NCBI GenBank assembly: GCA_902778285.1
Contig: CACYXC010000010.1
Span: 9,323-73,322 of the forward strand
Direction: 5' to 3'
Origin: Oscillospiraceae bacterium
GTDB lineage: Bacteria > Bacillota > Clostridia > Oscillospirales > Oscillospiraceae
Length of the DNA stretch: 64,000 bases
In this document: piece by piece, positions 2,751 through 59,109 of the stretch
Layout: the number at the start of each line of letters is the position of its first letter
Numbering within the stretch: the first letter of the stretch is position 1
Notes under the pieces: generated by a model
What the model saw: the letters and a program-made list of their open reading frames with translations, nothing else
What the model was told of the DNA's origin: nothing
The model's database searches: none
Translations under genes and position numbers: made by a program

Positions 2751-2918
2751 GGTTCAACACCTCTATGTATAGTTTTTTTACCTTCATACTATACTACATC
2801 TTCGACTGATTGTAAAACGGAAAATAGATAGGCGAATGATAAAGATTGGGCCGAAGCAATGGGAAAAGATTGGGAATAATAGACAAGACGTCCGCTCCCG
2901 AGATACAGGAGCGGACGT

Positions 2919-3046
2919 CAGACTGTAAGACAAACCCTTTGCGGCGGGCCTGGATACGCATGGGGAGAGCGCGAGAGGGGATTGGTGATTCCCTCTCGCA
3001 GTTCAATTTCGCCTTTCAAGCTGTCGACACGGCGTCGACAGCTTGA
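2919..3046 (+). mobile_element. MITE-like structured repeat, copy A (short form, lacks the A/T hairpin module)
   Basis: Contains CAGACTGTAAGACAAACC...GCATGGGGAGAGCGCGAGAGGGGATTGGTGATTCCCTCTCGC...CAAGCTGTCGACACGGCGTCGACAGCTTGA. It is flanked by two related but diverged hairpins, 2887..2919 and 3046..3076, which share CCGCTCCCG. Confidence 0.75.
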
Positions 3047-3088
3047 AGGCCGCCCCCGCAGCACGGGAGCGGCCTTCCGGCGAATCGA

Positions 3089-4030
3089 TCAGGCGATCTT
3101 TTTCATTTTGTCGTTGAGCCACTTGAGGATATCGCGATAGACGTCCTCGCGGTTGATCTCGTTAAGCATCTCGTGCCGTCCCCCGGGATAGAGGCGGATC
3201 ATCACGTCCTTGATACCGGCGTCGCAGAAGGACCTGTAGGCCTTCTCAACGCCCGCGCCGTAATCGCCGACCGGGTCCTCCTCGCCGGACATGAAGTAGA
3301 TCGGAGCGTCCTTGTTCATCTTGTCCACGTTCTTCTGACTGCCGATGAAGCGGATGCCGGCCATCATGTCACGGTAGAGGCTGACCTTCGCCACGAAGCC
3401 GCAGAAAGGATCGGCGATGTATTTGTCCACATTGGCCTCGTCCCGGCTCAGCCAGTCGAAAGGCGTGCGGGGATTTGGGATCTTCTTGCAGTAGGAGCCG
3501 AAGGCCATGTCGTTGAGCTTCTGCCCGTCGCCGCGAGGCCCGCTTTTTTTGACGAGGAGATTGGCCGCGGTATAGCCCGCGAAGACCAGCGCCCTGCCCT
3601 GCTGACCGGTGCCGCTGATGATGGCGGCGTCGTATTTGTCCGGGTGCTCGATCAGGTAGGTGCGGGTCAAAAAGCTGCCCATGCTGTGTCCGAAGAAGAT
3701 ATAGGGCAGATCGGGGTATTCTGCGTGCATAAGGTCGCGCAGTTTGTCCATGTCCCTGATGACGTGGTCCCAGCCATCGCTCTCGGCGAAAAAGCCCAGA
3801 TCGGCCGGGTCGGTGACGGTCTGGCCATGGCCCAGATGATCGTCGCCCACGGCGACAAAGCCGTTTTCGGCGAGGAAGGAGGCAAAATCGTCATAGCGGT
3901 TGATGTGCTCGGCGATGCCGTGCTCGATCTGGATCACGGCGCGCGGCGCGCCGTCGGGCAGACATTTGCGCGCGTGGATACGGTTTTTTCCGGTGCTGGA
4001 GTCAAAATAAAAATCCTCAAAACTGGGCAT
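3089..4030 (-). CDS. Alpha/beta hydrolase (lysophospholipase / monoacylglycerol-lipase-like)
   Basis: Track ORF is 3089..4048. It carries a GHSMGS nucleophile elbow and an HG oxyanion region. I moved the start to ATG 4030 (MPSFEDF...) because GGGGGAAG lies 6-8 nt upstream, whereas ATG 4048 has no RBS. Confidence 0.75.
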   Translation of the reverse strand: MPSFEDFYFDSSTGKNRIHARKCLPDGAPRAVIQIEHGIAEHINRYDDFASFLAENGFVAVGDDHLGHGQTVTDPADLGFFAESDGWDHVIRDMDKLRDLMHAEYPDLPYIFFGHSMGSFLTRTYLIEHPDKYDAAIISGTGQQGRALVFAGYTAANLLVKKSGPRGDGQKLNDMAFGSYCKKIPNPRTPFDWLSRDEANVDKYIADPFCGFVAKVSLYRDMMAGIRFIGSQKNVDKMNKDAPIYFMSGEEDPVGDYGAGVEKAYRSFCDAGIKDVMIRLYPGGRHEMLNEINREDVYRDILKWLNDKMKKIA

Positions 4031-4116
4031 GGAAACTTCCCCCTTCATGTGTTATACTGTCAGCAGGCTTTGCTGTAATTTTACTCTTTTGTGTTTTGTT
4101 CGTCAAGGAGAAGCCG

Positions 4117-4545
4117 ATGAAGGTCTATATCAAATATTTCGATAAAGAGATCACGCCGGTGCAGAAGATCGAAAAAGGGGACTGGATCGATCTGCGCGCG
4201 GCGGAAACCGTGGAGATGAAGGCGGGGGACTGGGGCTTTATCCGCCTCGGCATAGGCATGATCCTGCCCGAGGGATATGAGGCGCATGTGGCCCCGCGCA
4301 GCAGCACGTTCAAGAATTTCGGCATCCTCGTGTCCAACAGCTTCGGCATCATCGACAACTCCTTCTCCGGCGAGGAGGATGAGTGGCGCCTGCCCGTATA
4401 CGCCGCGCGCGATACCGTAATTCACAAAAACGACAGGATCTGTCAGTTCCGCATTGTGGAGAAGCAGCCGGATTTCGAGCTGGAGACCGTCGAGCACCTG
4501 CGGGACGTCAGCCGCGGAGGCTTCGGCTCGACCGGGAAGGATTGA
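4117..4545 (+). CDS. dut: dUTP diphosphatase
   Basis: MKVYIKYF... with GIIDNSFSGEEDEW (motif 3-like) and a C-terminal GGFGSTG. AAGGAGA lies upstream of ATG 4117. The track start at 4096 is an upstream alternative. Confidence 0.8.
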   Translation: MKVYIKYFDKEITPVQKIEKGDWIDLRAAETVEMKAGDWGFIRLGIGMILPEGYEAHVAPRSSTFKNFGILVSNSFGIIDNSFSGEEDEWRLPVYAARDTVIHKNDRICQFRIVEKQPDFELETVEHLRDVSRGGFGSTGKD

Positions 4546-4575
4546 ATCCATTGTACGAGCTTCTGAGCCCGTGCT

Positions 4576-4736
4576 GGGACTGCAGACAAAGCTATGCGGA
4601 CAGGCTTGGATCCGCATGGGGAGAGCGCGAGAGGGGATTGGGTATTCCCTCTCGCGTTTGATATTCTCAAGAATGAGAACTTTTTCGGAAGTTTTCATTT
4701 TTGATTCGCAAGGTGTCGACATTTTTTGACACCTTG
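4576..4736 (+). mobile_element. MITE-like structured repeat, copy B (long form, slightly decayed ends)
   Basis: The 5' end is degenerate (GGGACTGCAGACAAAGC). The core GCATGGGGAGAGCGCGAGAGGGGATTGGGTATTCCCTCTCGCG is intact. The A/T hairpin module AAGAATGAGAACTTTTTCGGAAGTTTTCATTTTT is present, and the 3' palindrome is CAAGGTGTCGACATTTTTTGACACCTTG. Confidence 0.7.
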
Positions 4737-4738
4737 CG

Positions 4739-4772
4739 CCCGGGCCAAGTGGCCCGGGGTTCGTTATTTCTT
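4739..4772 (+). terminator. dut terminator (right flank of copy B)
   Basis: CCCGGGCC-AAGT-GGCCCGGG followed by the T-rich GTTCGTTATTTCTT. Confidence 0.6.
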
Positions 4773-4818
4773 CCAAGTCCATCCGCGGACGGTCTTGAAA
4801 AACCTGCAGGATGCACCA

Positions 4819-4847
4819 TTGACAGAAAGCAGATCATCGGTTATAAT
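4819..4847 (+). promoter_or_regulatory. Sigma-A promoter of the yerC-his operon
   Basis: TTGACA (4819..4824), 17 nt, TATAAT (4842..4847). Confidence 0.7.
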
Positions 4848-4898
4848 TTGCCTTACTAACGGATTAGTATAGTAAAGCGATAAAGCGAGGCGGAACAG

Positions 4899-5195
4899 AT
4901 GGCCAACTGGTATACGGATGAGGTAAAAACGCTGTTTGAGGCGATCCTGACGCTGCAGAGCGTAGACGAGTGCCGCAGCTTTTTCGAGGACGTCTGCACG
5001 GTCAAGGAGATGCGCGAGATCTCGCAGCGCCTGCAGGTCGCGCAGATGCTGCGCACGGGCACCAGCTACGCGGCGATCAACGCCCAGACCGGCGTCAGCA
5101 CCGCGACGATCAGCCGCGTAAGCCGCTGTCTGGAATACGGCTCCGGCGGCTACGACCTGGTCCTCTCGCGTCTGCCGGAGGGGGAAGAGCCGTGA
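4899..5195 (+). CDS. yerC: TrpR-like YerC/YecD family protein
   Basis: 98 aa, ...MREISQRLQVAQMLRTGTSYAAINAQTGVSTATISRVSRCLEYGSGGY... This is the typical first gene of clostridial his operons. Confidence 0.75.
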   Translation: MANWYTDEVKTLFEAILTLQSVDECRSFFEDVCTVKEMREISQRLQVAQMLRTGTSYAAINAQTGVSTATISRVSRCLEYGSGGYDLVLSRLPEGEEP

Positions 5196-6289
5196 ACGAC
5201 GAAAGCCTGATGAGGCCGGAGGAGCGCGCGGCCCTCGCGCTCCAGGCGCTTTATCGCAAGTACGGCTACCTGCCGTTCCGGATGAGCCGCTTCGAGGAAT
5301 ATGATTTCTACGCGCGCAATAAAGATTTTCTTGTCAGCGACCGGATCATCACCTTCACCGACAGCCGCGGCCGTCTGCTCGCCCTGAAGCCGGATGTAAC
5401 GCTATCCATTATCAAGAGCGGCAGCGACCGGCCCGGCTGCAAACAGAAGCTCTGTTACAGCGAAAAGGTCTTCCGCGCCGCCGGGAGCATGGGCGAGTTC
5501 AAGGAGATCACGCAGGCGGGGCTGGAGTGTATCGGCGACCTCGACGTCTATGACTGCTTCGAGGTTACGGCGCTCGCGGTCAGGAGTTTGTCGCTCCTCG
5601 GCGGGGATTATGTGCTGAATCTCTCGCACCTTGGTCTGCTCAACGCGCTTTTTTCCCCATTTGATCCGGACAGCGCCCTCGCGCGCGGCGCGGCGCGCTG
5701 CATCGCCGGGCGAAATGTCCACGAGCTGGAGGCACTCTGCCGTGAAGCGGAGCTCCCCGAGGAGACGGTGAGGGAGTTCTGCTTCTTTGCCGGTCTCCAC
5801 GCGCCGCTCGCGGAGGCCGTCGAACAGCTCGCGCCCTGCTGCGTCAGCGAGACGGCCCTTGCGGCGCTCTCGGAGCTTCGGAATCTCAGCGGCCTGCTGG
5901 ACGGGGCGGGGCTTGCCGACAGGGTCTATTTTGATTTTTCCGTGGTGAACAACCGCAAGTACTATAACGGGCTGGTCTTTCAGGGCTTTCTGGACGGCGT
6001 GCCCGAGAGCGTGCTGGCCGGCGGTCAGTATGACTGGCTGATGGCGCGCATGGGGCGCAGGGCCTCGGGCCTCGGCTTCGCGGTCTACCTGGACCGCCTG
6101 CCTTCCGGCACGGAGGCGGCCGGCTTCGATGTCGACGTACTGCTGCTCTACTCCGATCCGGCGGCCGTGCCCGCTGCGGTCTCGCGGCTGCAGGCGCAGG
6201 GGAAGAGCGTCAGCGCGCAGCGGGAGATCCCCGACAAGCTTCGTTACCGGGAGCTCGCCGATCTGCGGGGAGGAGCGGAGAATGCTTAA
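5192..6289 (+). CDS. hisZ: ATP phosphoribosyltransferase regulatory subunit
   Basis: HisRS-like paralog, ...ALQALYRKYGYLPFRMSRFEEYDFY...LKPDVTLSIIK... The GTG at 5192 lies behind GGAGGGGGA and overlaps the yerC stop; ATG 5210 is an alternative. It is followed by a short-form hisG. Confidence 0.8.
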   Translation: MNDESLMRPEERAALALQALYRKYGYLPFRMSRFEEYDFYARNKDFLVSDRIITFTDSRGRLLALKPDVTLSIIKSGSDRPGCKQKLCYSEKVFRAAGSMGEFKEITQAGLECIGDLDVYDCFEVTALAVRSLSLLGGDYVLNLSHLGLLNALFSPFDPDSALARGAARCIAGRNVHELEALCREAELPEETVREFCFFAGLHAPLAEAVEQLAPCCVSETALAALSELRNLSGLLDGAGLADRVYFDFSVVNNRKYYNGLVFQGFLDGVPESVLAGGQYDWLMARMGRRASGLGFAVYLDRLPSGTEAAGFDVDVLLLYSDPAAVPAAVSRLQAQGKSVSAQREIPDKLRYRELADLRGGAENA

Positions 6290-6905
6290 TATCGCGCTTC
6301 CCAAGGGACGGCTCGGCGAGAAGGTCTATGCGCTGTTTGAAAAGGCGGGCTACGCATGCCCGGAGCTTTTGCAGGACAGTCGCCGCCTGATTTTTGAAAA
6401 CGCCGGGGCGGGCGTGCGTTACTTCTGGGTCAAGCCCTCGGACGTGGCGATCTATGTGGAGCGCGGCGCGGCGGATCTGGGCGTCGCGGGAAAGGACATC
6501 CTGCTCGAGTATGAGCCGGAGGTCTACGAGCTGCTGGACCTCGGCCTCGGAAAATGCCGCATGGCCGTGGCCGGACCGAAGGATTTTTACGACAGCGGCC
6601 TGCGCGCCCTGAAGGTCGCCACCAAGTTTGCCGGCATCGCCTCCGCGTACTATGAGCGGAAAGGACGGGAGATCGACATCATCCGGCTCAACGGCTCCAT
6701 CGAGCTTGCGCCGGTGCTGGGACTGTCGGACGTGATCGTGGACATCGTCGAGACCGGCAAGACCCTGCGCGAGAACGATCTGGTCGTGCTGGAGGAAGTG
6801 ATGCCGATCAGCGCGCGGCTGATCGCGAACAAGGCGGCCTATCAGTTCAAGACCGCCGAAGTCGAGAAGCTGAAAGAGAATGTGAAAGGGATGATCGATG
6901 CATGA
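6282..6905 (+). CDS. hisG: ATP phosphoribosyltransferase (short form)
   Basis: MLNIALPKGRLGEKVYALFEKAGY...VKPSDVAIYVERGAADLGVAGKDIL... ATG 6282 overlaps the hisZ stop. Confidence 0.9.
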   Translation: MLNIALPKGRLGEKVYALFEKAGYACPELLQDSRRLIFENAGAGVRYFWVKPSDVAIYVERGAADLGVAGKDILLEYEPEVYELLDLGLGKCRMAVAGPKDFYDSGLRALKVATKFAGIASAYYERKGREIDIIRLNGSIELAPVLGLSDVIVDIVETGKTLRENDLVVLEEVMPISARLIANKAAYQFKTAEVEKLKENVKGMIDA

Positions 6906-8176
6906 TCCGCATCTGCCGATACGGGGAGATACCGAATGAAGAGCTGTTCGCGCGCAGAGACGCGGCCTTCCATGTGGAGCAGCGCGTGCGGGAGATCATC
7001 GATGAGGTCGTGAGACGCGGCGACGAAGCCCTGCTGGACCTGACCGAGCGCTATGACGGCGTGCGGCCCGACCCGATCGAAGTCACACAGCAGGAGTTCG
7101 ACGAGGCGCTCAACGCCGTCGAACCGGCATTTCTTAACGTGCTGAAGGAGGCGGCGGAAAATATCGCCGCCTATCACAGCCGCCAGAAGCGCGAGAGCTT
7201 CATCATGCAGGGGAAGGACGGCGTGCTGCTCGGTCAGAAGATCACGCCGATCGAAAAGGTCGGCCTCTACGTCCCGAACGGGACCGCGCCCTATCCCTCC
7301 ACCGTGCTGATGGATGCGATCCCCGCCAAAATCGCGGGCTGCCCGGAACTTGTCATGGTGACGCCGCCCTCGCGAAACGGAAAGGTGGACCCCGGCATCC
7401 TCGCCGCGGCGAAGGTCGCGGGCATCGACCGCGTGTTCAAGGTCGGCGGCGCCCAGGCGATCGCCGCGCTGGCATACGGGACCGAGAGCGTCCCCGCGGT
7501 GTACAAGATCGTCGGCCCCGGCAACGCCTATGTGGCCGAGGCCAAGCGTCAGGTCTTCGGCAAGGTCGCCATCGACGTGGTAGCCGGCCCCAGCGAGGTC
7601 CTGCTGGTGTCGGACGCGGGCTCAGATGCCGGGATCGTCGCGGCGGATATGCTGGCACAGGCCGAGCACGACAGGCTTTCCACCGCCGTTCTCGTGACGG
7701 ACAGCATGGAGCTTGCCCTCGCCGTTCAGACAGAGATCGAACGGCAGCTCCGTGTATTGCCGCGGGAGGAGATCGCGCGCGCTTCCATTGAGAACAACGG
7801 ACGCATCATCGTGGCTGAGGACCTGGACACGGCGATCGACATCGCAAACGAGATCGCGCCGGAGCATCTGGGCCTGTGCGTGGACGAGCCCTTCTCCTGG
7901 CTCGACCGGGTCAAAAACGCGGGCTCGATCTTCCTCGGCCGCTGCGCGCCGGAGGCGCTCGGCGACTATCTGGCAGGGCCGAACCACACGCTGCCGACCG
8001 GCGGCATCGCCAAGTTCGCCTCGCCCCTGTCGGTGGACGATTTCATTAAAAAATCGCAGTTTACCTATTATACGAAGGACGCGCTGCGCGGGGTGTCGGA
8101 ACAGATCGCTCTCTTCGCGCGCAAGGAGGAGCTGGAGGGCCACGCCCGCAGCGTACTAAAGAGGTTTGAGCAATGA
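6902..8176 (+). CDS. hisD: Histidinol dehydrogenase
   Basis: 424 aa; the ...[17 protein letters not shown]...AQAEHD...[14 protein letters not shown]... motifs are typical of HisD. Confidence 0.9.
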
Positions 8177-9234
8177 GCCGCTATTTCAGTGAACGCTTTG
8201 CGACGCTCCGGCCCTATGTGCCGGGCGAGCAGCCGCAGGATCAGCAGTATGTCAAGCTCAACACCAACGAGTCGCCCTTTCCGCCGCCGCAGGCGGTCCT
8301 GGATGCGGTGAACGCCGAGAGCGGGCGGCTGCAGCTCTATTCCGACCCGGACGGGCGGCTTCTTCGCCGGAAGCTGGCGGAACGCTGCGGGGTGGGGGAG
8401 GAGCAGATCCTGCTTGGAAACGGCTCCGACGAGGTGCTGTATCTGGCCTTCATGGCCTTTTGCGACAACGGGATCGCCTTCCCGGACATCAGCTACGGCT
8501 TTTACCCTGTGCTCGCGTCGCTCCTGAATCTCGAGGCGCTGCGCATCCCGCTGCGTGAGGATTTCCGCATCGTGCCGGAGGACTATTTTGGCCTCGGCAG
8601 ACCGATCGTGATCGCAAACCCCAACGCGCCGACCGGCATGTGCCTCAGCGTCGGAGAAATCGAGAGCATCGCGGCCGCGAACGCCGGTCACGTCGTGATC
8701 GTGGACGAGGCCTATGTGGACTTCGGCGCGGAGAGCGCGATGCCGCTGATCGGGAAGTATGACAATCTGCTCGTGGTGCAGACCTTTTCCAAATCCCGCT
8801 CGCTCGCCGGCGCACGCCTCGGCTTCGCCGCGGGCAGTGCGGAGCTGATCGCGGACCTCAACACGCTGCGCTGCTCGATCAATCCCTACAACGTCAACCG
8901 CATGACGCTCGCGGCGGGCCATGCCTCTCTCGAGAACGACGAATATAACCGGGCCAACTGTAAAATCGTGGCAGACAATCGTGCCTGGACGGCGGAGGAA
9001 CTGAAAAAGCGAGGCTTCACGGTCCTGGATTCGCGCGCTAACTTCGTATTTGCCGGCTGCGGCTGGATCGGGGGCGGCGAGCTGTACCGGGAGCTGAAAG
9101 CGCGCGGCGTGCTCGTGCGCCACTTTACACAGGAGCGGATCGAAAACTTTGTGCGCATCACCATCGGCTCTTGCACGCAGATGGAGATCCTGCTCAAGAC
9201 GATCGACGCGATCAGAGAGGAGCTAAGTCAATGA
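8173..9234 (+). CDS. hisC: Histidinol-phosphate aminotransferase
   Basis: 353 aa with a class-II aminotransferase pattern (...NPNAPTG...VIVDEAYVDF...TFSKSRSLAGARLGF...). It sits in the his operon. Confidence 0.9.
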   Translation: MSRYFSERFATLRPYVPGEQPQDQQYVKLNTNESPFPPPQAVLDAVNAESGRLQLYSDPDGRLLRRKLAERCGVGEEQILLGNGSDEVLYLAFMAFCDNGIAFPDISYGFYPVLASLLNLEALRIPLREDFRIVPEDYFGLGRPIVIANPNAPTGMCLSVGEIESIAAANAGHVVIVDEAYVDFGAESAMPLIGKYDNLLVVQTFSKSRSLAGARLGFAAGSAELIADLNTLRCSINPYNVNRMTLAAGHASLENDEYNRANCKIVADNRAWTAEELKKRGFTVLDSRANFVFAGCGWIGGGELYRELKARGVLVRHFTQERIENFVRITIGSCTQMEILLKTIDAIREELSQ

Positions 9235-9821
9235 GGACGGCACAGATCGAACGCAAAACGGCGGAGACGGACATCAGCCTGCGCCTGAATCTGGACGGCT
9301 GCGGCGAGTGCAGCGTGAGCAGCGGCGTGGGCTTTCTCGACCACATGCTGACGCTCTTTGCCCGCCACAGCGGCTTTGATCTGACGCTCAGCTGCGTGGG
9401 CGACACAGAGGTCGACGATCATCACAGTGTCGAGGATATCGGCATCTGCCTCGGCCGCGCGCTGGCCGAGGCGCTGGACGAGAAGCGCGGCGTGGCCCGC
9501 TACGGCGATATCACGCTGCCGATGGACGAGGCGCTGATCCTTGCGGCGGTCGACCTGTCCGGCCGCGGCGCCTTCTTCAGCGAGCTCTCGATCCCGACGC
9601 AGAAGGTCGGCAGCTTCGACACGGAGCTGGTGGAGGAGTTTTTCATCGCTCTCTGCCGCGAGGCCGGCATCACGCTGCACCTGCGGCAGCTCTCGGGACG
9701 CAACAGCCACCACATCATCGAGGGCTGCTTCAAGGCCTTCGCGCGCGCGCTGGCCAAGGCGGCGGCGATCGACGGGAAGAACCTGGGCCGCGTGCCCTCG
9801 ACCAAGGGGATGCTGGTATGA
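9231..9821 (+). CDS. hisB: Imidazoleglycerol-phosphate dehydratase
   Basis: MRTAQIERKTAETDISLRLNLDG...GFLDHML...DDHHSVEDIGI...NSHHIIEG... Confidence 0.9.
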   Translation: MRTAQIERKTAETDISLRLNLDGCGECSVSSGVGFLDHMLTLFARHSGFDLTLSCVGDTEVDDHHSVEDIGICLGRALAEALDEKRGVARYGDITLPMDEALILAAVDLSGRGAFFSELSIPTQKVGSFDTELVEEFFIALCREAGITLHLRQLSGRNSHHIIEGCFKAFARALAKAAAIDGKNLGRVPSTKGMLV

Positions 9822-10432
9822 TCGCGGTCGTGGATTACGGCGTGGGCAATCTCTTCTCGCTCTGCTCCTCGCTCCGCGCCATTGGGGCGGAGGCGGTCGT
9901 AACGAACGAGAAAAGCGTTCTCCGCAGCGCCGACAAGATCATCCTGCCCGGCGTCGGCGCTTTTGGCGACGCGGCTGAAAAGCTGCGGGAGCAGGGGATT
10001 GATTCGCTGCTGACCGAACAGGCCGCGCAGGGCAGGGAGATCCTCGGCATCTGCCTCGGCATGCAGCTTCTCTTTGAGAGCAGCGAGGAATATGGCTTTC
10101 ATCGCGGTCTCGGCCTGCTCAAGGGCCGCGTCGTTGCGATGGAGGGAAGGCTCCCGCCTGAGCTGAAGATCCCGCACATCGGCTGGAACGCGCTGCGTTT
10201 CCGGCGTGACCACAGGCTTCTGCGTTATATCCACGACGGAGACTGCGTGTACTTTGTGCACTCTTTCTATGCGGAGGACTGCAGCGACAGCCTCGTTGCC
10301 GCGGCGGAGTACGGCCGGGAAATCACGGCGATCGTCGGAAGCGGCAATGTGATGGGCTGCCAGTTCCACCCGGAGAAGAGCGGCGGCGTGGGTCTGAACA
10401 TTTTGAGAGCATTCTGTGAGGAGACGGCATGA
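9818..10432 (+). CDS. hisH: Imidazole glycerol phosphate synthase, glutaminase subunit
   Basis: MIAVVDYGVGNLFS...ILPGVGAFG...GICLGMQLL...PHIGWN...FVHSF... Confidence 0.9.
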   Translation: MIAVVDYGVGNLFSLCSSLRAIGAEAVVTNEKSVLRSADKIILPGVGAFGDAAEKLREQGIDSLLTEQAAQGREILGICLGMQLLFESSEEYGFHRGLGLLKGRVVAMEGRLPPELKIPHIGWNALRFRRDHRLLRYIHDGDCVYFVHSFYAEDCSDSLVAAAEYGREITAIVGSGNVMGCQFHPEKSGGVGLNILRAFCEETA

Positions 10433-11142
10433 TCCTTCTGCCAGCAATCGATCTCTACGAGCAAAAAGCCGTGAGGCTGTATAAGGGCGACTACGCGCGG
10501 ATGACCGTCTACAGCGAACAGCCCCTTGACGTCGCGCGGAACTTCGCCGCGGCCGGCGCCGGGTGGGTCCACATGGTGGATCTCGAGGGCGCGAGGGACG
10601 GGGACACGCCGAATCTCGACATCGTATCGGAGATCGTGCACGAGACCGCGCTGAAGGCCGAGATCGGCGGCGGCATCCGGAAGATGGAGACCGCGCAGCG
10701 CTATCTCGACGCAGGGGTCAAACGCGTGATCCTCGGCACGGCGGCGATCACGGACGAGGGCTTTCTGCGCGAAGCGCTTTTGGCCTTCGGCGCAGCCGTC
10801 GCTGTCGGCGCCGATGTGAAGGACGGCTGTATTGCCATCCGCGGCTGGCGGGAGCAGTCCGCTCAGACGCTGGAAGCCTTTCTCGGGCGCATGGAGGAGC
10901 TTGGCGTCCGGACCGTGATTTGCACCGATATCTCCCGCGACGGCGCGATGCGCGGTATGAACTTGGCGCTCTACCGCGAGCTCTCGCAGCGCTTTTCGAT
11001 GGATCTGATCGCCTCCGGCGGCGTGAGCAGTCTGGAGGATATCCGCGCGCTGCGCGGGCAGGGCCTGTACGGCGCGATCCTCGGCAAGGCGTATTACACG
11101 GGCGCGGTCGATCTGCGCGAGGCACTGGAGGCGGCAAGATGA
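10429..11142 (+). CDS. hisA: ProFAR isomerase
   Basis: MILLPAIDLYEQKAVRLYKGDY...VHMVDLEGA...TDISRDG... Confidence 0.9.
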   Translation: MILLPAIDLYEQKAVRLYKGDYARMTVYSEQPLDVARNFAAAGAGWVHMVDLEGARDGDTPNLDIVSEIVHETALKAEIGGGIRKMETAQRYLDAGVKRVILGTAAITDEGFLREALLAFGAAVAVGADVKDGCIAIRGWREQSAQTLEAFLGRMEELGVRTVICTDISRDGAMRGMNLALYRELSQRFSMDLIASGGVSSLEDIRALRGQGLYGAILGKAYYTGAVDLREALEAAR

Positions 11143-11897
11143 TCACAAAACGAATCATTCCCTGTCTGGACGTGAGAAACGGCCGGGTGGTCAAGGGCGT
11201 CAATTTTCAGGGTCTGCAGGATGTGGATTCACCGGTGGCGCTGGGGAAGTACTACTCCGACAGCGGCGCGGACGAATTGGTGTTCTACGACATCACGGCC
11301 TCCTATGAGGACCGCGCGCTGTTCACCGACATCCTGACCGAGGTCGCCCGCACGATCTTTATTCCATTGACCGTGGGCGGCGGCATCAATACCGTGGACG
11401 ATTTTGACCGCGTGCTCAAATGCGGCGCGGACAAGGTCAGCGTCAACTCCGGCGCGATCCGCGACCCCTCGCTGGTGCGCGAGGCGGCGCTGAAATACGG
11501 CGACCAGTGCGTGGTGCTCTCGGCGGATATCAAGCGCGTGGACGGCTTTTTCTGCGTCTTCGCCAGGGGCGGGCGCGAGAACACGGGAATGGAGGCCATC
11601 GACTGGATCAAGCGCTGTGTCGCAAACGGCGCGGGAGAGGTCGTTGTCAACTCCATCGACACCGACGGTGTAAAGGGCGGCTTCGATCTCGAGATGCTGC
11701 AGGCCGTGTGCGACGCCGTGAAGGTGCCGGTGATCGCCTCCGGCGGCGCGGGCTCGCAGGCGGATTTCGTGGAGCTGTTTCGGAAGGTCCCCGCGGTGGA
11801 CGCGGGGCTTGCGGCCTCGGTCTTCCACTTCGGCCAGATCGCGATCCCGGAGCTCAAGCGCTGCCTGCGCGACAACAACATCAATGTGAGGCTTTGA
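11139..11897 (+). CDS. hisF: Imidazole glycerol phosphate synthase, cyclase subunit
   Basis: [24 protein letters not shown]...LVFYDITAS...TVGGGI...VNSIDTDG... ATG 11139 overlaps the hisA stop. Confidence 0.9.
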
Positions 11898-11898
11898 C

Positions 11899-12546
11899 AT
11901 GATCGATATCAGCGAACTGAAATTCGACGAGCGCGGGCTGATCCCCGCGATCGTTGCGGACGCGGAGAGCAAAAAAGTGCTGACCCTCGCCTATATGAAC
12001 CGGGAGAGCCTGACGATCTCGATGGAAAAGGGGCTTACCTGCTTCTGGAGCCGCTCGCGGCAGGAGCTGTGGCTGAAAGGGGAGACGAGCGGGAACTATC
12101 AGCATATCGTCTCCATCACGGCCGACTGCGATAAAGACGCGCTGCTGGTGCTTGTGGAAAAAGACGGGCCGGCCTGCCATCTCGGCACGGACTCCTGTTT
12201 TACGAATCCCCTCTGGCAGAGTCCGGAGCGCTCCGCTTTTTCTCTCGACGGCCTCTATGCGCTGCTCGAGGACAGAAAGGCCGAGCGTCCCGAGGGCTCC
12301 TATACCAGCTATCTCTTTGACAAGGGCCTCGACAAGATCCTCAAAAAGGTGGGGGAGGAGTGCACCGAGGTCATCATCGCCGGCAAGGCCGAAGATCGTC
12401 GGGAGACCGTATACGAGATCGCAGACCTTTGCTATCATGTCATGGTCCTGATGGTGCAGATGGGCATCCCTCCTGCTGAGATTGAGAAGGAGCTGGCCTC
12501 GCGGCATATCATCGATCACAAGGTCAAGCAGGAGAAGATGGTATGA
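11899..12546 (+). CDS. hisIE: Bifunctional phosphoribosyl-AMP cyclohydrolase / phosphoribosyl-ATP diphosphatase
   Basis: ...AYMNRESL...[18 protein letters not shown]...CDKDALL...CH.G..SCF, followed by a HisE-like C-terminal half. Confidence 0.9.
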
Positions 12547-13316
12547 GCCTCAACAACTATCACACTCACAGCAGGTACTGCGACGGCAGGGACCGCCCCA
12601 AGGCCATGATCCGGCGTGCGATCGCTCTGGGCTGTGAGGAGCTGGGCTTTTCCGGGCACGCCTATGTCGACTTCGACGACTGCTGCATGACGCCGGAGGG
12701 CACGGAGGCCTACAAGCGCGAGATCCGCAGGCTGAAAGAGAAGTATGCCGACAAGATCCGTATCCTCCTCGGCGTGGAGCAGGATTACTACTCACCGCTC
12801 CCCACGGACGACTACGAGTATGTGATCGGTTCCGTGCACTATCTCCAGAAAGACGGCAAATATCTGACCGTCGACCACACGAGGGAAAAGCAGATCCGCA
12901 TCGTGCGCGAGTATTACGGCGGGGACTACTACGCCTTCATCGAGCAGTACTATGCCATGGTCGGAGAGATCTACGAGAGAACGCACTGCGATATCGTCGG
13001 CCATTTTGATCTCGTCACAAAGTTCAACGAGGACGGCAGTCTCTTCGACACCTCCCATCCCCGTTACCGCGCGGCGGCGCTTGCGGCGCTCGACAGGCTC
13101 TGCGCCTGTCCCGTGATCTTCGAGGTCAATACCGGCGCCATCGCCCGCGGCTATCGGAAGACGCCTTACCCAGAAAACTGGCTCCTTGACGAGCTGCGCC
13201 GGCGAAAAATGCCTCTGCTGCTGTGCTCCGACTGCCATGACCGGCGCTTTTTGCTGTGCGGAATGGATGAGCTGAAACAGAAGATCCCGGAAGCCAGGGA
13301 GAAACTATTTGGTTAA
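12543..13316 (+). CDS. hisJ: PHP-family histidinol-phosphatase
   Basis: [15 protein letters not shown]...GFSGHA... with PHP-domain His clusters. Last gene of the his operon. Confidence 0.8.
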
Positions 13317-13331
13317 AACGCTAAATTGTTG

Positions 13332-13360
13332 TTGCATTTTGTTGTGCAGTATGCTATGAT
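13332..13360 (+). promoter_or_regulatory. Promoter upstream of the glycine riboswitch
   Basis: TTGCAT (13332..13337), 17 nt, extended -10 TGCTATGAT (13352..13360). Confidence 0.55.
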
Positions 13361-13409
13361 GCATGCGTAACAAGTTCATATCCCTTGAAGCTCTCCGAAT
13401 ACGTTGTAG

Positions 13410-13555
13410 ACAGAGGGCGGAGGAACTCTGGAGAATCTCATGCTGCATGAGTGCCGAAGGTGCAAGGCCGGAAACGGCCGAATCTCTCAGGCCAAAGGAC
13501 AGAGCACACAGTCGGCGGCCTTGCGTGTATTGTCCAGGCCGCCGACTGTCATTAT
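13410..13555 (+). promoter_or_regulatory. Glycine riboswitch (single recognisable aptamer) with terminator-like expression platform
   Basis: CTCTGGAGAA-[P2 hairpin]-GCCGAAGGTGCAA-[GGCCGGAAACGGCC]-GAATCTCTCAGGCCAAAGGACAGAG matches the glycine aptamer core (CUCUGGAGAG...GCCGAAGGrGCAA...CUCUCAGGCAAAAGGAC). It is followed by the 13-bp-arm hairpin ACAGTCGGCGGCC/GGCCGCCGACTGT (13508..13549). The downstream gene is an alanine/glycine:cation symporter. Confidence 0.75.
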
Positions 13556-13628
13556 TCGCAATTGCTTTGAAAGAAGGAGCTCCTTCTTTGCGCGCAGGAG
13601 AGGAAACTAACGGAAAGGACAAGAGAGA

Positions 13629-15029
13629 ATGGATACTTTTATTTCCAAAGTGGAAGCCGTCAACGGCGCAGTAAACAGCTTCGCGTGGGGGCCGCTGATG
13701 CTCCTGCTGCTGGTCGGCACCGGCGTCTATCTGACCGTTCGCGTCAAGTGGCTGCAGGTCACGCATTTCGGCCGCATCCTGAAAAATACGATCGGTACCC
13801 TGTTTCGGAAAAAGTCCGCGAAGGAGCACGGCGCGAACATCTCCGCCTTCGAGGCTGTCAGTACCGCCCTCGCGGGCACGGTGGGCACCGGCAATATCGC
13901 GGGCGTGACCGGCGCGATCTTCACCGGCGGCGCGGGCGCGGTGTTCTGGATGTGGGTCGCGGCCTTCTTTGGCATGGTTACCAAATACGCCGAGATCGTG
14001 CTGGCCATGAAGTACCGCGTCAAGGACGAAAACGGCGTCTACCACGGCGGGCCGATGTACTATATCGAAAACGGCATCGGCAGGGGCTGGAAATGGCTGG
14101 CCGTGATCTTCAGTCTGCTGGGCGGCCTCGCCACCTTCGGCATCGGCAACATCGCCCAGAGCAGTGAGATCGCGGGCGCTCTCGGCGACCTGTTCCATAT
14201 CTCCCCGCTGGTCTCCGGCATTTTGATCGCGGTCGTCGTCGCGCTGGTGACGCTGGGCGGCATCAAGCGCATCGGCAAGGTCACTTCTCTTCTGGTCCCC
14301 TTCATGTCCGCTTTCTACATCCTCGCGGGCCTTGCCGTCATCATCCTGCGTATCACGCAGATCCCCGCGGTGCTCGGGCAGATCTTCGCCGGGGCCTTCT
14401 CCTTCAAGAGCGTCGGCGGCGGCCTCTTCGGCTATACCATCATGATGGCCATGAAGCAGGGCTTCGCCCGCGGCGTCTTCTCCAATGAGGCCGGTCTCGG
14501 CTCCGCGCCGATTGCCCATGCCGCCTCCTCCACCGAGGAGCCCTGCGAGCAGGCGATCTGGGGCGTGTTCGAGGTCTTTATCGACACCATTGTGATCTGC
14601 AGCATCACCGCCTTCGCCGTGCTGCTCTCCGGCATCCTGAATGTCGACGGCGGGCTTTCCGCCTACGCCTCCAAGGGCGCGGCGGCCGCGGCGGCTTTCA
14701 ACACGATTCTGCCCGGCACGCTCGGCGGCAAGATCATCGAGCTGAGCCTGCTGTTCTTCGCTCTGTCCACGATCCTCTCCTGGGGCTACTACGGCGAGAA
14801 TTTCTGGGGCTATCTGACCGGCAACAACAAGATCGTTGTGCTGATCTACAAGATCGTTTTCGCGCTGGTCTGCATTGTCGGCGCCGTCGGCTCCGGCACG
14901 CTGATGTGGGATATCGCCGACACGCTCAACGGTCTGATGGCGATCCCCAACCTGATCGCGCTGCTGCTGCTCTCCGGCGTCGTGACCAGGCTCACGAAGG
15001 ACTATTTCTCGAAGAATATGAAGAAATAA
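13629..15029 (+). CDS. Alanine/glycine:cation symporter (AGCS family)
   Basis: 466 aa, polytopic; ...ISAFEAVSTALAGTVGTGNIAGVTGAI..GGAGAVFWMW... is typical of AGCS transporters. The minus ORF 13305..14519 is an antisense shadow. Confidence 0.85.
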   Translation: MDTFISKVEAVNGAVNSFAWGPLMLLLLVGTGVYLTVRVKWLQVTHFGRILKNTIGTLFRKKSAKEHGANISAFEAVSTALAGTVGTGNIAGVTGAIFTGGAGAVFWMWVAAFFGMVTKYAEIVLAMKYRVKDENGVYHGGPMYYIENGIGRGWKWLAVIFSLLGGLATFGIGNIAQSSEIAGALGDLFHISPLVSGILIAVVVALVTLGGIKRIGKVTSLLVPFMSAFYILAGLAVIILRITQIPAVLGQIFAGAFSFKSVGGGLFGYTIMMAMKQGFARGVFSNEAGLGSAPIAHAASSTEEPCEQAIWGVFEVFIDTIVICSITAFAVLLSGILNVDGGLSAYASKGAAAAAAFNTILPGTLGGKIIELSLLFFALSTILSWGYYGENFWGYLTGNNKIVVLIYKIVFALVCIVGAVGSGTLMWDIADTLNGLMAIPNLIALLLLSGVVTRLTKDYFSKNMKK

Positions 15030-15093
15030 GCAAGCGCAAAGAGCGAGCGAAATGAATGGAAAACAAAAAGAACCGCACCTCGTGAGGTGCGGT

Positions 15094-15256
15094 CAAGCTG
15101 TCGACAAAGTGTCGACAGCTTGAAAGGCAAAAACAGAAACATTCGAAAATGTTCCTGTTTTTGCTGACATTGAAATGCGAGAGGGAAAAACCAATCCCCT
15201 CTCGCGCTCTCCCCATGCGCGTCCATCCTGGTCGCGTTGGGTTTGTCTACAGTCTG
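15094..15256 (-). mobile_element. MITE-like structured repeat, copy C (long form, variant A/T hairpin)
   Basis: Full element in reverse orientation. It is flanked by identical 22-bp direct copies of the hairpin ACCGCACCTCGTGAGGTGCGGT (15072..15093 and 15257..15278). The outer A-run and T-run (AAAAAGA / TCTTTTT) show that one bidirectional terminator between the symporter and secG was split and duplicated. Confidence 0.85.
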
Positions 15257-15299
15257 ACCGCACCTCGTGAGGTGCGGTTCTTTTTGCTATCAATTTATC

Positions 15300-15542
15300 T
15301 TACAGCAGGCTCAGGTTCAGGATCAGCGTCAGAACGACGAAGCCCAGCGCGAACCACTTGGTGGCCTTGGCAAGCTTTGCGTCCCAGGTCTTGGCCTTAC
15401 CCTTGGACATAAAGGTCTCGGCGCCGCCGGAGATGGCGCCGGAGAGGCCGGCGCTCTTGCCGCTCTGCATCAGCACGATCACGGTCACAGCCAGTCCGGA
15501 GAGGACCTGAAGCACGGTGAAGATAATGGTAACAGCATTCAT
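15300..15542 (-). CDS. secG: Preprotein translocase subunit SecG
   Basis: 80 aa, MNAVTIIFTVLQVLSGLAVTVIVLMQSGKSAGLSGAISGGAETF... A typical SecG with two TM segments. Confidence 0.85.
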   Translation of the reverse strand: MNAVTIIFTVLQVLSGLAVTVIVLMQSGKSAGLSGAISGGAETFMSKGKAKTWDAKLAKATKWFALGFVVLTLILNLSLL

Positions 15543-15708
15543 GTATTTTCAACCCTTTCGATAGTATACCGCTTACAAGCTTTCTGAGTATAACATAAGA
15601 GATTTGTTAATTCAAGTGTTTTTTTTCGCTCCCGGCCTGAAAAATCGGGCACTGTGCTTCGAATTGGCAAAGTACGATCTTTTTTGTCAAAAACTCTGCA
15701 AATAGCCC

Positions 15709-15769
15709 TTTACCAAATTGACTGGTATATGATATAATAGCAAAAAAGTTTAGACATTTTCATGAAAAT
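15709..15769 (+). promoter_or_regulatory. Promoter and palindromic operator candidate upstream of the TetR gene
   Basis: TTTACC (15709..15714), 18 nt, extended -10 TGATATAAT (15730..15738). A perfect 14-bp palindrome ATTTTCATGAAAAT (15756..15769) lies between the -10 and the RBS. Confidence 0.45.
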
Positions 15770-15793
15770 ATCTGAACGATCGGAGGTATAATC

Positions 15794-16351
15794 ATGTCCA
15801 GCAGTACGAAAGAGTCCCTGGCGGCCGCGCTGAAGCAGATGATGGCGGTCAAGCCCATCGACAAGATCACGGTGAAGGATCTGGTAGAGATCTGCGGCGT
15901 CAACCGGCAGACCTTTTACTATCATTTTGACGACGTGTACGACCTTCTCGAATGGGTTTTCGAGGAGGACGCCAACCGCGTGCTCCCGCATGAGGTCGTG
16001 TTTGACCACTGGCGGGAAGACGTGCTGATGTATATGCGCTATCTGCAGGAGAACAGCGTCTTCACGCTCAATGTCTACAACTCCAACAGCAGGCTCTACA
16101 TGCTGCGCTATCTGGAGGGCAAGATGGCGGAGTGTATCCGAAGCTTCGCGGTGATCGTCTCGGAGGGGATGAACATCGACCGACAGGACTTCGAGTTCAC
16201 AGTGAAGTTTTATGCCAAGATCGCGATCGGCTTCATTGCGCACTGGATGGACCTGGGCATGCAGATGCCCAAAGAGATCACCGAGGAGCGTATCCTGCGC
16301 GTGATGGAAAACAGCGTTGAAAGCATTCTGGCGCGTTTCCAGATCAAATAG
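15794..16351 (+). CDS. TetR/AcrR-family transcriptional regulator (DhaS-like subgroup)
   Basis: 185 aa with an N-terminal HTH, ...ITVKDLVEICGVNRQTFYYHFDDVYDLLEW... Confidence 0.8.
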   Translation: MSSSTKESLAAALKQMMAVKPIDKITVKDLVEICGVNRQTFYYHFDDVYDLLEWVFEEDANRVLPHEVVFDHWREDVLMYMRYLQENSVFTLNVYNSNSRLYMLRYLEGKMAECIRSFAVIVSEGMNIDRQDFEFTVKFYAKIAIGFIAHWMDLGMQMPKEITEERILRVMENSVESILARFQIK

Positions 16352-16399
16352 GTGCGACATTCACAAGAATAGATGCTCCCGGCTTCCGGCCGGGGGCAT

Positions 16400-16560
16400 C
16401 AGACTGTAGACAAACCCATTTAGAACAAGTCGGACTTGCATGGGGAGAGCGCGAGAGGGGATTGGTTATTCCCTCTCGCGCTTGATATCCTCAAAAATGA
16501 GAACTTTTTGAAAGTTCTCATTTTTGATTCTCAAGGTGTCGACACTATGTCGACACCTTG
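16400..16560 (+). mobile_element. MITE-like structured repeat, copy D (long form)
   Basis: Complete element. The left flank is the terminator hairpin GATGCTCCCGGCTTCCGGCCGGGGGCATC (16372..16400). On the right, only its first 13 nt (ATGCTCCCGGCTT, 16561..16573) are repeated. Confidence 0.85.
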
Positions 16561-16918
16561 ATGCTCCCGGCTTTAGGGCGCGCAGAATTGGGATACGACA
16601 GCGCAAAAAGGATCATTTCGCGCCTGACGTCGTTGAAAATGCTCGGGATACAGCTCAAGTATTCCTGCGTTTTTCGCCTTGTCCGACACAAAAAACACTT
16701 TTCTTGCGTGCAAAGCAGTTTTGAGCGAGGCATTTTGTTCAGACAATACAGAACAATCCGGGAATACAAGATGTATTTCCTGATTTTTCTGTGCAGTATG
16801 GGCGGAAAAGGGCCGCTCAAAACCTGTCGCCTTCCTGATCTGCGCGCCCTTTCGACCGGGGTCATTTTGCTGAAACAATTCATCATCGCGCCGTATCGTA
16901 TTCCCGACAGTCAAACTG

Positions 16919-16947
16919 TTGCATTTACCGGACTATTGTAGTATAAT
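16919..16947 (+). promoter_or_regulatory. Sigma-A promoter of rpe-recR
   Basis: TTGCAT (16919..16924), 17 nt, TATAAT (16942..16947). Confidence 0.65.
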
Positions 16948-16989
16948 ATCTTGCCATGTTTCAAAACCGATTGCCGGAGGTTCTTCGTT

Positions 16990-17643
16990 ATGCTTAAGAT
17001 CGCACCTTCCATTCTCGCCGCAGATTTTGCCCGTCTGGGCGAAGAGGTCGAAGACATCCGGCGCGGAGGCGCGGACTTTGTGCATGTCGACGTGATGGAC
17101 GGTTGTTTTGTGCCGAACATTTCCGTTGGGATCCCTGTCGTCGCCTCGCTGCGCAAAGCGACCGACATGTTTCTGGATGTGCATCTGATGATCGACCGGC
17201 CGGTGCGCTATGTTGAGCGCTTCTGCAGGGCAGGCGCCGATCTTGTCAATCTCCATGCGGAGGCTGACAGCCTTGAGAACAACTTGGAAGCCCTGCGCAT
17301 CATCCGTGCAAACGGCAAAAAATGCGGCGTGACGCTAAAACCCGCAACGCCTGCCGAGGCTTTGTCTCCCTATCTGGAGCTCGTGGATCTGGTACTGATC
17401 ATGACGGTGGAGCCCGGCTTCGGCGGGCAGAAGTTCATGGATGATATGATGGATAAGGTCCGTGCCGTTCGTCGGATGCTCGACCCCGTAAACCCCGGCT
17501 GCGACGTGGAGGTGGACGGCGGCGTGGACCCGCAGACCGCTCCGATCTGCAAAGCGGCAGGCGCCAATGTTCTGGTCGCCGGCAGCGCCGTTTTCGGAAA
17601 GGCTGACCGTGCGGCAGCTATCGAAGCGATCCGAAATTCTTGA
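16990..17643 (+). CDS. rpe: Ribulose-phosphate 3-epimerase
   Basis: MLKIAPSILAADFARLGEEV...HVDVMDG.FVPN...DVHLM...MTVEPGFGGQKF... ATG 16990 lies behind GGAGG. Confidence 0.9.
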   Translation: MLKIAPSILAADFARLGEEVEDIRRGGADFVHVDVMDGCFVPNISVGIPVVASLRKATDMFLDVHLMIDRPVRYVERFCRAGADLVNLHAEADSLENNLEALRIIRANGKKCGVTLKPATPAEALSPYLELVDLVLIMTVEPGFGGQKFMDDMMDKVRAVRRMLDPVNPGCDVEVDGGVDPQTAPICKAAGANVLVAGSAVFGKADRAAAIEAIRNS

Positions 17644-17656
17644 ACGGAGTAGAGTT

Positions 17657-18256: not shown

Positions 18257-18396
18257 TCCTTTCCCCTGCGCAGACAGGTGCATCTCACATCAACAGGCGA
18301 ATATTCCGCGCGCAATGTGGTTATGTTTTATTATCGTTTCGTCTGACCGGCGCGCTTACGCCTGATACATAGTATTTTCTGGAAATGGAGTAATCA

Positions 18397-54284: not shown

Positions 54285-54381
54285 TTCGCAGATATTGTAA
54301 CGCGAGAGGGGATAACCAATCCCCTCTCGCACTCTCCTCATGCACATCCAGGCCTGTCTCACGGGCTTCATTTACATTCTG
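54285..54381 (-). mobile_element. MITE-like structured repeat, copy G (degenerate, truncated)
   Basis: CGCGAGAGGGGATAACCAATCCCCTCTCGCACTCTCCTCATGCACATCCAGGCC...TTCATTTACATTCTG aligns to the core and the 5' end of the family. The 3' palindrome and the flanking hairpin duplication are missing. Confidence 0.55.
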
Positions 54382-55710: not shown

Positions 55711-55787
55711 TGGCACCCACGAGAGGATTCGAACCTCCGACCTGCCGCTTAGGAGGCGGCCGCTCTATCCTGCTGAGCTACGTGGGC
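55711..55787 (-). tRNA. tRNA-Arg (anticodon CCU), CCA encoded
   Basis: Reverse complement: GCCCACGTAGCTCAGCAGGATAGAGCGGCCGCCTCCTAAGCGGCAGGTCGGAGGTTCGAATCCTCTCGTGGGTGCCA. I folded the cloverleaf by hand: 7-bp acceptor stem, GCTC/GAGC D stem, GCCGC/GCGGC anticodon stem with loop CTCCTAA, and GGAGG-TTCGAAT-CCTCT T arm. Confidence 0.9.
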
Positions 55788-58775: not shown

Positions 58776-58900
58776 TTTTCAGGATACAGTTTTCAGAGAT
58801 CGCCTTGTTGCTTTGGCTTCCGCCGGGAAACTATATGTGAATGTAAGGGATTGTGCCGATCTCGTATGGACTTCTCTCTGAAAACTCAATACTGAAAACT
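58774..58900. repeat. 127-bp segment bounded by 25-nt imperfect inverted repeats rich in TTTTCAG
   Basis: AGTTTTCAGGATACAGTTTTCAGAG (58774..58798) against CTCTGAAAACTCAATACTGAAAACT (58876..58900); 19 of 25 positions are complementary. Confidence 0.45.
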
Positions 58901-58945
58901 GAGGACTAAAAACGGGCTATGAAAGACTTATCTTTCATACCGTTC

Positions 58946-59070
58946 CAGACTGTAGACAAACCCATACAGAGCAAGTCGGACTCGCATGGGGAGAGCGCGA
59001 GAGGGGACGGTAATCCCCTTTCGCGGTACAATCTGTGCAAAAATCTGTCGACACTTTGTCGACAGCTTGA
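58946..59070 (+). mobile_element. MITE-like structured repeat, copy H (short form)
   Basis: Flanked by 34-36-bp direct copies of the hairpin AACGGGCTATGAAAGACTTATCTTTCATAGCCCGTT (58911..58944, with a 2-nt loss, and 59071..59106). The core hairpin carries a compensated variant, GAGAGGGGACGGTAATCCCCTTTC. Confidence 0.8.
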
Positions 59071-59109
59071 AACGGGCTATGAAAGACTTATCTTTCATAG
59101 CCCGTTCTG

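Follow-up and report, generated by a model that had tools for sequence, protein, structure and literature searches.

The closest described behaviour to that of the element reported here is shown by IS1272 and TnSha1 of staphylococci, two members of the IS1182 family whose targets are terminator hairpins of no particular sequence (PMC4923244, PMC5678879). IS1272 uses a "stem-loop-replacing" transposition, in which the hairpin is wholly or partly removed and no duplication is generated (PMC5678879, PMC4923244). The duplication of a whole hairpin has been considered as hypothetical pathway b only (PMC5678879), and a paper from 2025 states that little is known about IS1182-family elements (PMC12056078). 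As an observed outcome, whole-hairpin duplication was not found in the searchable literature, which did not cover the ISfinder records and the Siguier reviews, so that long palindromic direct repeats may be familiar to curators of the IS1182 family; direct repeats of 0–60 bp may be listed for it in ISfinder. Here, a family of short repeats was analyzed that is present in eight copies in a stretch of 64,000 nt from an Oscillospiraceae bacterium (contig CACYXC010000010.1, positions 9,323 to 73,322; referred to as the window). The repeats very probably represent a family of non-coding miniature transposable elements with inverted repeats (MITEs) that are mobilized in trans by IS1182-family DDE transposases and that duplicate whole terminator hairpins upon insertion. 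The element belongs with the IS1182 family, a placement that a preliminary description of this DNA had left unnamed. IS1272 and TnSha1 resemble it in the transposase family, in the target, an inverted-repeat or terminator hairpin that varies in size and sequence and is read as a structure, and in the insertion directly downstream of genes. They differ in that the hairpin is deleted there, whereas here it is kept on both sides of the element and empty alleles hold one, and in that they are insertion sequences, whereas the element studied here is a non-autonomous derivative of 162 bp.

Other short elements resemble the MITE in some respects. MITEPye1 of Paracoccus yeei has IS1182-like terminal repeats, is intergenic, and folds into stem-loops, but it is flanked by direct repeats of 4 bp, neither a hairpin target nor a hairpin duplication is reported, its copy number is low, and its host is an alphaproteobacterium (PMC11578231). 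SPRITE, BOX, and RUP of pneumococcus, bcr1 of Bacillus, Correia, and REP/REPIN are likewise short, structured, extragenic, and multicopy. Such small intergenic repeats are often co-transcribed with their neighbours, and SPRITE is terminator-like (PMC3184786, PMC10969869). In contrast to the MITE, their target duplications, where reported, are short and of fixed length (5 bp for bcr1, PMC3184786), and the duplication of a host terminator is reported for none of them in PMC3184786 and PMC10969869. The EFAR repeats of Enterococcus faecalis may likewise be located at terminators.

A search of the window with a 28-nt core sequence (GCATGGGGAGAGCGCGAGAGGGGATTGG) yielded eight matches, six of them exact, one with two mismatches, and one with three, while none were expected in shuffled sequence. 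The eight copies, numbered here from left to right, are those of the preliminary description, and their positions and strands were borne out by the core search, an alignment, and exact string positions. The coordinates also stood, with the exception that the ends of copy 1 (2919–3045) and copy 8 (58946–59069) are each 1 nt shorter than had been noted. The density is about one copy per 8 kb. The terminal-repeat consensus of the clade (CARNNTGTMGAVAAA) has 12 matches in the window versus 0.5 expected, and all 12 lie within the eight copies. A gene map based on the G+C content at third codon positions (GC3) verified that all copies are intergenic, that at least one gene has its 3′-end at each of them, and that four of the eight lie between convergent genes (copies 3, 5, 6, and 8, beginning at 15094, 21503, 34679, and 58946, respectively). 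The mechanical open reading frame (ORF) 15710–16360 on the minus strand was considered as a neighbouring gene, but it is not the real gene. The elements have sizes of 119–164 bp, the ORFs that overlap them lack a coding-type GC3, and nothing is encoded by them; the G+C content of the window is about 59%. No promoter-like sites were found inside the five copies that were covered by a scan of positions 2800–22000.

All four parts of the anatomy that had been proposed are seen in the alignment, i.e. a 5′-end (CAGACTGTAGACAAACC), the core, an A/T-rich hairpin, and a 3′-palindrome (CAAG(G/C)TGTCGACA-CTT-TGTCGACA(C/G)CTTG). The full-length MITE comprises about 162 bp, and shorter forms with internal deletions comprise 119–127 bp. 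It begins with a left terminal repeat of 16 nt (CAGACTGTAGACAAAC), which is followed by a short helix, a GC-rich core hairpin of 13 bp, the A/T-rich hairpin, and the right end, at which the terminal repeat (TGTCGACA[C/G]CTTG) pairs with its own inverted copy. The termini had been regarded as imperfect inverted repeats, which agrees with a match of CAGACTGTAGACAAAC to the reverse-complemented right end, CAAG(G/C)TGTCGACAAAG, at 11–12 of 16 positions. The inner part of the terminal repeat, TGT(A/C)GACAAA, is nearly perfect between the two ends. The A/T-rich hairpin had been described as optional; it is indeed present, but its absence from short copies turned out to be an internal deletion, because the contig L171 (loci outside the window are given as L numbers) carries a full-length element at the site of the short copy 6.

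The distribution of the element was analyzed by scanning one genome per species with a 24-nt stretch of the core. This yielded 39 loci, all in metagenome-assembled genomes (MAGs) of uncultured rumen or gut Clostridia, Oscillospiraceae, or Ruminococcaceae, and a single MAG supplied about 30 of them. The spacing of the window copies was reproduced at none of the 39 loci. A BLAST search of plasmids with the MITE gave no match, and a scan of viral contigs with the right-end repeat CAAGGTGTCGACAAAG, performed to find an insertion sequence, yielded one further MITE copy and chance matches only.

A hallmark that was absent from the preliminary description is that the GC-rich hairpins on the two sides of the MITE are direct duplications of each other, an arrangement shared by nearly all intact copies. 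The same hairpin abuts both ends in 29 of 50 core-bearing copies from the window and the 39 rumen MAG loci. The duplication is perfect in 18 of these 29 cases, with a length of 18–38 bp (median 30). The duplicated hairpin differs from site to site, but the duplicated unit is a complete palindrome, and the perfect ones have a median stem of 12 bp and at most 1–3 unpaired bases at their ends. The unpaired bases are explained by microhomology with the terminal ...CTTG(A) of the element, and the boundaries of the duplications are ambiguous by 1–3 nt. A T-rich tail is found after the distal hairpin copy only.

In the window, four copies have retained the duplication. The full-length copy 3 (15094–15256, minus strand) is flanked by a hairpin of 22 bp (ACCGCACCTCGTGAGGTGCGGT) at 15072–15093 and 15257–15278. 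Its target was a bidirectional terminator that has been split, so that one tail is found at each outer hairpin, and each of the two is terminator-like on its own strand. The full-length copy 5 (21503–21666, minus strand) lies between two copies of a 28-bp hairpin (ACAGCCCCGCTCTTTCGAGCAGGGCTGT) at 21475–21502 and 21667–21694. Copy 6 (34679–34797, plus strand) is a variant with an internal deletion and is flanked by a hairpin of 27–29 bp ((G)AGAGGCTTTCCTACGCGGAAAGCCTCT(C)) at 34652–34678 and 34798–34824, the latter of which is followed by the T-rich tail GTTTTACTTTTT. Copy 8 (plus strand) is a short variant with three mismatches in the core. Its hairpin occupies 38 bp on the right side (59070–59107) and 36 bp on the left side (58910–58945, AAACGGGCTATGAAAGACTTATCTTTCATA--CCGTTC), where 2 nt are deleted relative to the right copy.

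The flanks of the other four copies are more diverged. Copy 1 (plus strand) is a short variant without the A/T-rich hairpin and is located between two diverged hairpins at 2887–2918 and 3046–3076. They are identical at 19 of 23 aligned positions, both still fold, and two compensatory pair changes were seen by eye. These compensatory changes suggest an old insertion, and both hairpins seem to have been kept foldable since the duplication. Similar compensatory differences between the two hairpin copies were observed at L039 and L034. Copy 2 (4576–4736, plus strand) is of full length, but its left end is degenerate (GGGACTGCAGACAAAGC) and the duplication has decayed; a terminator-like hairpin is present beside it at 4739–4758. 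The full-length copy 4 (16400–16560, plus strand) has a left hairpin at 16372–16399, while no more than the initial 14 nt survive of the second one (16560–16573). Copy 7 (54285–54381, minus strand) is a degenerate remnant with two mismatches in the core and decayed ends, and its flanks contain no recognisable duplication.

The preliminary description had proposed a mobile element, and comparison of alleles supports this view. When two neighbouring proteins were used as queries, bovine and rumen metagenome contigs were retrieved on which the proteins and the gene order are identical. Exact filled and empty alleles on conspecific contigs were found for the copies at 15094, 21503, and 34679. At the site of copy 6, a single hairpin is directly followed by GTTTTAC in L169 and L170, while the site is filled in L171–L173. 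Empty alleles with a single hairpin were also found for copy 5 (L178, L179, L182, and L184) and for copy 3 (L279). On contig k141_490099, copy 5 is present and the site of copy 6 is empty. The repeats are therefore neither confined to the window nor fixed in its relatives; copies occur elsewhere, and their presence is polymorphic. As a separate observation, short tandem heptamer tracts, (TTTTCAG)n, are found after the stop codon and before the terminator hairpin at sites used by the MITE (21448–21468 and 58878–58905 of the window). Six matches were found versus 0.18 expected, and such tracts are also present at L002, L017, and L037. As the empty alleles have them too, the tracts are part of the host sequence rather than of the element.

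The window had been described as devoid of a transposase, and no IS1182-type transposase was detected in it by tblastn, although other transposase families were not scanned exhaustively. An autonomous element that shares the termini was found elsewhere, yet none that matches at both ends exactly. A scan of viral contigs with a 14-mer of the MITE left end uncovered one locus at which the motif occurs twice in inverted orientation, 1.65 kb apart. This locus turned out to be an insertion sequence with perfect terminal repeats (CAGACTGTAGACAAAG) and one ORF, which matches the NCBIfam model of IS1182-family DDE transposases, NF033551, with 467.8 bits (cutoff 270) and contains the Pfam domains DUF772, DDE_Tnp_1_6, and DDE_Tnp_1. 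Further copies from viral and metagenome sequences form subfamilies of 1603–1672 bp with the same repeats. Examples of autonomous elements are L160–L167 and L198–L277 from human-gut and viral sequences, L288 from Acetoanaerobium noterae, and L284 and L289–L302 from the rumen. Their terminal repeat is CA(A/G)NNTGT(A/C)GA(C/A)AAAG, and their transposase gene encodes about 490 amino acids. The left end of the MITE matches the terminal repeats of the L160 and L164 types at 15 of 15 positions and the right end of one subfamily at 16 of 16 positions. In contrast to the MITE, the autonomous elements have a transposase gene, an unrelated interior, and a right end without the self-paired double repeat.

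The autonomous elements use the same kind of target as the MITE, and they duplicate it in the same way. Duplications of hairpins of 19–36 bp were observed in 16 of 69 distinct flank pairs. A duplication of 26 bp is present in the record of the finished genome of A. noterae, one of 31 bp in a rumen contig of 2.56 Mb, and other rumen relatives have duplications of 25 and 40 bp. The finished record and the 2.56-Mb contig confirm the duplication in sequences to which assembly chimerism should not apply. All 20 insertion-sequence duplications that were analyzed are symmetric about the dyad of the hairpin; 15 of them have no unpaired base at either end (0/0), three have one at each end (1/1), and two have two at each end (2/2).

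An IS1182 element was also found to reside in the species of the window. A tblastn search of the analyzed DNA of MITE-bearing organisms with the transposase yielded one match, on contig L284, which is 99.6% identical to positions 17084–21490 of the window. At the terminator that copy 5 occupies in the window, this contig has an IS1182-family element (NF033551, 411 bits). The ends of the resident element are CAGTCTGTCGAAAAAG and, as the reverse complement, CAGCTTGTCGAGAAAC. By manual count, the MITE ends match its left end at 12–13 of 16 positions, and its own two ends match each other at 12 of 16. In L300, an identical transposase is located, in different surrounding DNA, beside a hairpin that has the sequence of the copy 8 duplication, and a second IS1182-type element lies on the other side of this hairpin. 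In L301 and L302, a MITE copy adjoins the resident element directly with its right-end palindrome. At E ≤ 1e-100, the resident transposase has more than 6,600 relatives, and most of them are located on contigs of 1.6–2 kb, which is expected for collapsed repeats. The polymorphism, the terminal repeats shared with insertion sequences, and the target duplications taken together indicate that the MITE was spread by transposition, and an IS1182-family transposase such as that of the resident element would be a candidate enzyme.

How might whole hairpins be duplicated? We hypothesize that the transposase reads a DNA structure, the palindrome of an intrinsic terminator, and not a target sequence, because the duplication length varies and a shared target sequence is lacking, and because the duplication coincides exactly with the base-paired region and is symmetric about its dyad. 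The target palindrome would probably be extruded as a cruciform or a hairpin, and the two 3′-ends of the transposon would be joined to the 5′-foot of the hairpin, one on each strand. With the 3′-ends joined at the 5′-feet, the stagger would equal the whole palindrome, and gap repair would duplicate the entire hairpin. In the predicted product, the gene is followed by a hairpin, the element, a second hairpin, and the T tract, and where the terminator is bidirectional, one tail would be retained by each outer hairpin copy. As the distal hairpin would keep the T tract, a complete terminator would survive, and the survival of the terminator would allow a harmless accumulation at gene ends and a high density without disruption of genes. 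The data fit hypothetical pathway b of PMC5678879 (Fig. 13), the steps of which may apply here as well. It is conceivable, though less likely than not, that whole-hairpin duplication constitutes a distinct, uncharacterised mode of transposition, in which a DDE enzyme attacks the 5′-feet of a cruciform and the stagger (18–40 bp) is set by the target structure and not by the enzyme.

Several points weigh against mobilization of the MITE by IS1182 transposases in this manner. The recognition of a cruciform and the polarity of strand transfer are proposals derived from the geometry of the duplications and from the published model. No insertion sequence was found with both ends matching the MITE exactly, and an exact-match partner for the MITE ends was also not found in the rumen data. 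Between the right end of the MITE (reverse complement, CAAG[G/C]TGTCGACAAAG) and the gut-type repeat, only 11–12 of 16 positions agree. No insertion sequence has an interior related to that of the MITE, and the termini alone are common to both; the MITE is thus not a simple deletion derivative. The orientation of the element relative to the T tract is mildly biased (17 versus 8 of 29), and as such a weak bias says little about the mechanism, it was not used as evidence. Lastly, at 53 of the 69 insertion-sequence loci from metagenomes the hairpins on the two sides differ, although at nearly all of the non-duplicated loci each end still abuts a hairpin. One left flank occurs together with about ten different right flanks, and the differing flanks are therefore read as joins of short reads across a multicopy repeat, so that the metagenome statistics of the insertion sequences are distorted by assembly. 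Recombination or another mode of insertion is, however, a possible source of differing flanks as well.

A different explanation would be that the repeat is a functional RNA or DNA module kept by the host, e.g. a stabiliser of 3′-UTRs (3′-untranslated regions), a small RNA, or a protein-binding site, and that its transposon features are secondary. The internal structure could be taken to favour this idea. In 25 distinct full-length copies, the four helices are 96% paired, and 17 pairs change on both sides, a value that was reached by none of 500 shuffles. These changes on both sides affect 9 of 14 pairs in the A/T-rich hairpin and 7 of 13 pairs in the right-end palindrome. The core helix is invariant among the copies, the core is intact in copies with decayed ends (4576 and 54285), and it occurs with different termini in other MAGs (L013 and L023); the lack of any insertion sequence with a related interior would also be in line with a host function. 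However, the conservation of the core is in part an ascertainment effect, as the copies were found by searching with the core, and compensatory changes in a DNA palindrome are possible without selection at the RNA level. The possibility of a described non-coding RNA family had been raised, but no Rfam 15 family matched the copies in a scan at the gathering thresholds, and scans by E-value gave only sub-threshold chance matches to hairpins. The polymorphism within the species, the terminal repeats shared with insertion sequences, and the target duplications show that the repeat was spread by transposition. We thus consider a host module in place of a mobile element improbable, while a host-level role could exist in addition to mobility.

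It is still less probable that the MITE is mobilized as a single strand by an HUH tyrosine transposase, as in the case of REP/REPIN with RAYT or of elements of the IS200/IS605 type. REPs rely on an HUH transposase, the HUH transposases of the REP/REPIN and IS200/IS605 systems recognise hairpins, and the MITE is indeed rich in hairpins, has a terminal palindrome, and is located extragenically beside other palindromes. To our knowledge, however, the REP/REPIN and IS200/IS605 systems insert without target duplication and have no terminal inverted repeats, whereas the MITE has terminal repeats and long duplications, and the partners that behave identically encode a DDE enzyme. A gene for an HUH transposase was not seen beside any copy, although no systematic search was made.

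Insertion by a Cas1-like or another non-DDE integrase, as in CRISPR spacer integration, is a further alternative that we regard as very unlikely. During spacer integration, a staggered attack occurs at both borders of a unit of about 30 bp, which is often palindromic, and the whole unit is duplicated. By analogy, the repeat-sized and palindrome-centred duplication around the MITE would resemble the duplication of the CRISPR repeat during spacer acquisition; casposon integration is linked to spacer integration in the title of PMC5137440. The resemblance remains an analogy, since Cas1 is not a DDE transposase, the length of its duplication is fixed, and its target is sequence-specific. Furthermore, an IS1182 DDE transposase is the only protein encoded by the full-length elements that share these ends and duplications, and no cas1 was seen near any copy or insertion sequence. 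Finally, the idea that the copies are immobile, either as relics of segmental duplications or because the hairpin pairs are double terminators older than the repeat, could appeal to the lack of an intact duplication at 4576, 16400, and 54285 and to the constant intergenic spacing at copy 4 in the related contigs inspected, but it is contradicted already by the three copies with single-hairpin empty alleles and otherwise identical flanks, by hairpins that differ at each site, and by the contig that carries copy 5 but lacks copy 6, so that it hardly merits consideration.

The reading of the repeats as a MITE family moved by IS1182 transposases is accompanied by several observations on related arrangements. 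Target hairpins can be used repeatedly, resulting in arrays of element, hairpin, and element (L223, at the right flank of an insertion sequence, as well as L198, L200, L264, and L300). In L198 and L300, two insertion sequences share one common hairpin, and L223 contains a "nano-element" of 50 bp, in which a small hairpin is enclosed by a terminal repeat on either side and nothing else is present (CAGACTGTAGACAAAGCTCCTTCCTGTGAGGGAGCTTTGTCTACAGTCTG). The copy 5 terminator has been hit by three different elements and constitutes a hot spot: in L284, an IS3-family element with HTH_Tnp_1 and rve ORFs (4396–6200) is found in the loop region of its hairpin, and the IS3-family element is also present at this terminator in L279, L181, and L183. 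A second MITE family of about 160 bp without the GCATGGGGAGAG core was observed at L015 (235–454). It has ends of the same type (CAGAATGTAGACAAAGC ... GCTTTGTACACATTG) and a whole-hairpin duplication of 30 bp, and, as judged by eye, the L160-type insertion sequence agrees with its left 32 nt at about 28 positions. At L023 (2476–2842, UBA3758), near a tRNA gene at 2390–2473, two tandem core units have other termini, with right-end hairpins CGCGGCGCAGCCGCG and GCCCGCCGCAGGCGGGC and near-identical terminator hairpins between them (AAAAAGGAGAGAATCC..GGATTCTCTCCTTTTT). At L013, the core is likewise joined to other ends, and from these two loci the core may be a module that is shared between subfamilies.

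One MITE copy, at L022 (1728–3333, CAMOXI010000007.1), is split by an insert of 1339 bp, which is flanked by a direct duplication of 52 bp of the MITE, the limits of which are the loops of the core hairpin and the A/T-rich hairpin. The insert contains an ORF for a zinc-finger-like protein of 76 amino acids and an ORF with an HNH motif. It was considered as the autonomous partner and, on account of its GTGCG start, as a group II intron. Its ends are unlike those of the MITE, and it looks like a different mobile element with a long duplication of its own. Unrelated to the repeats, the window contains a T-box leader (27038–27324), a glycine riboswitch aptamer (13418–13512), and a tRNA (55714–55787), all at Rfam gathering scores.

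If whole terminator hairpins are indeed recognised and duplicated as proposed, this would represent a structure-guided "safe-harbour" transposition, in which each insertion regenerates the terminator. It would be very abundant in Firmicutes of the gut and the rumen, and it would be the mirror image of the hairpin deletion by IS1272. The dozens of independent insertions with matched empty sites are a natural data set on structure recognition by IS1182 elements, and the observation that the duplication is as long as the palindrome and has the dyad in its centre makes specific predictions about the recognition of cruciforms or junctions. For the hosts, an insertion should add about 190 nt to the 3′-UTRs, and at convergent gene pairs overlapping antisense tails are expected, which could affect expression. 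In addition, the element can be used as a marker for annotation and strain typing of MAGs of rumen Clostridia, and it accounts for assembly breaks and chimeric joins at the repeats.

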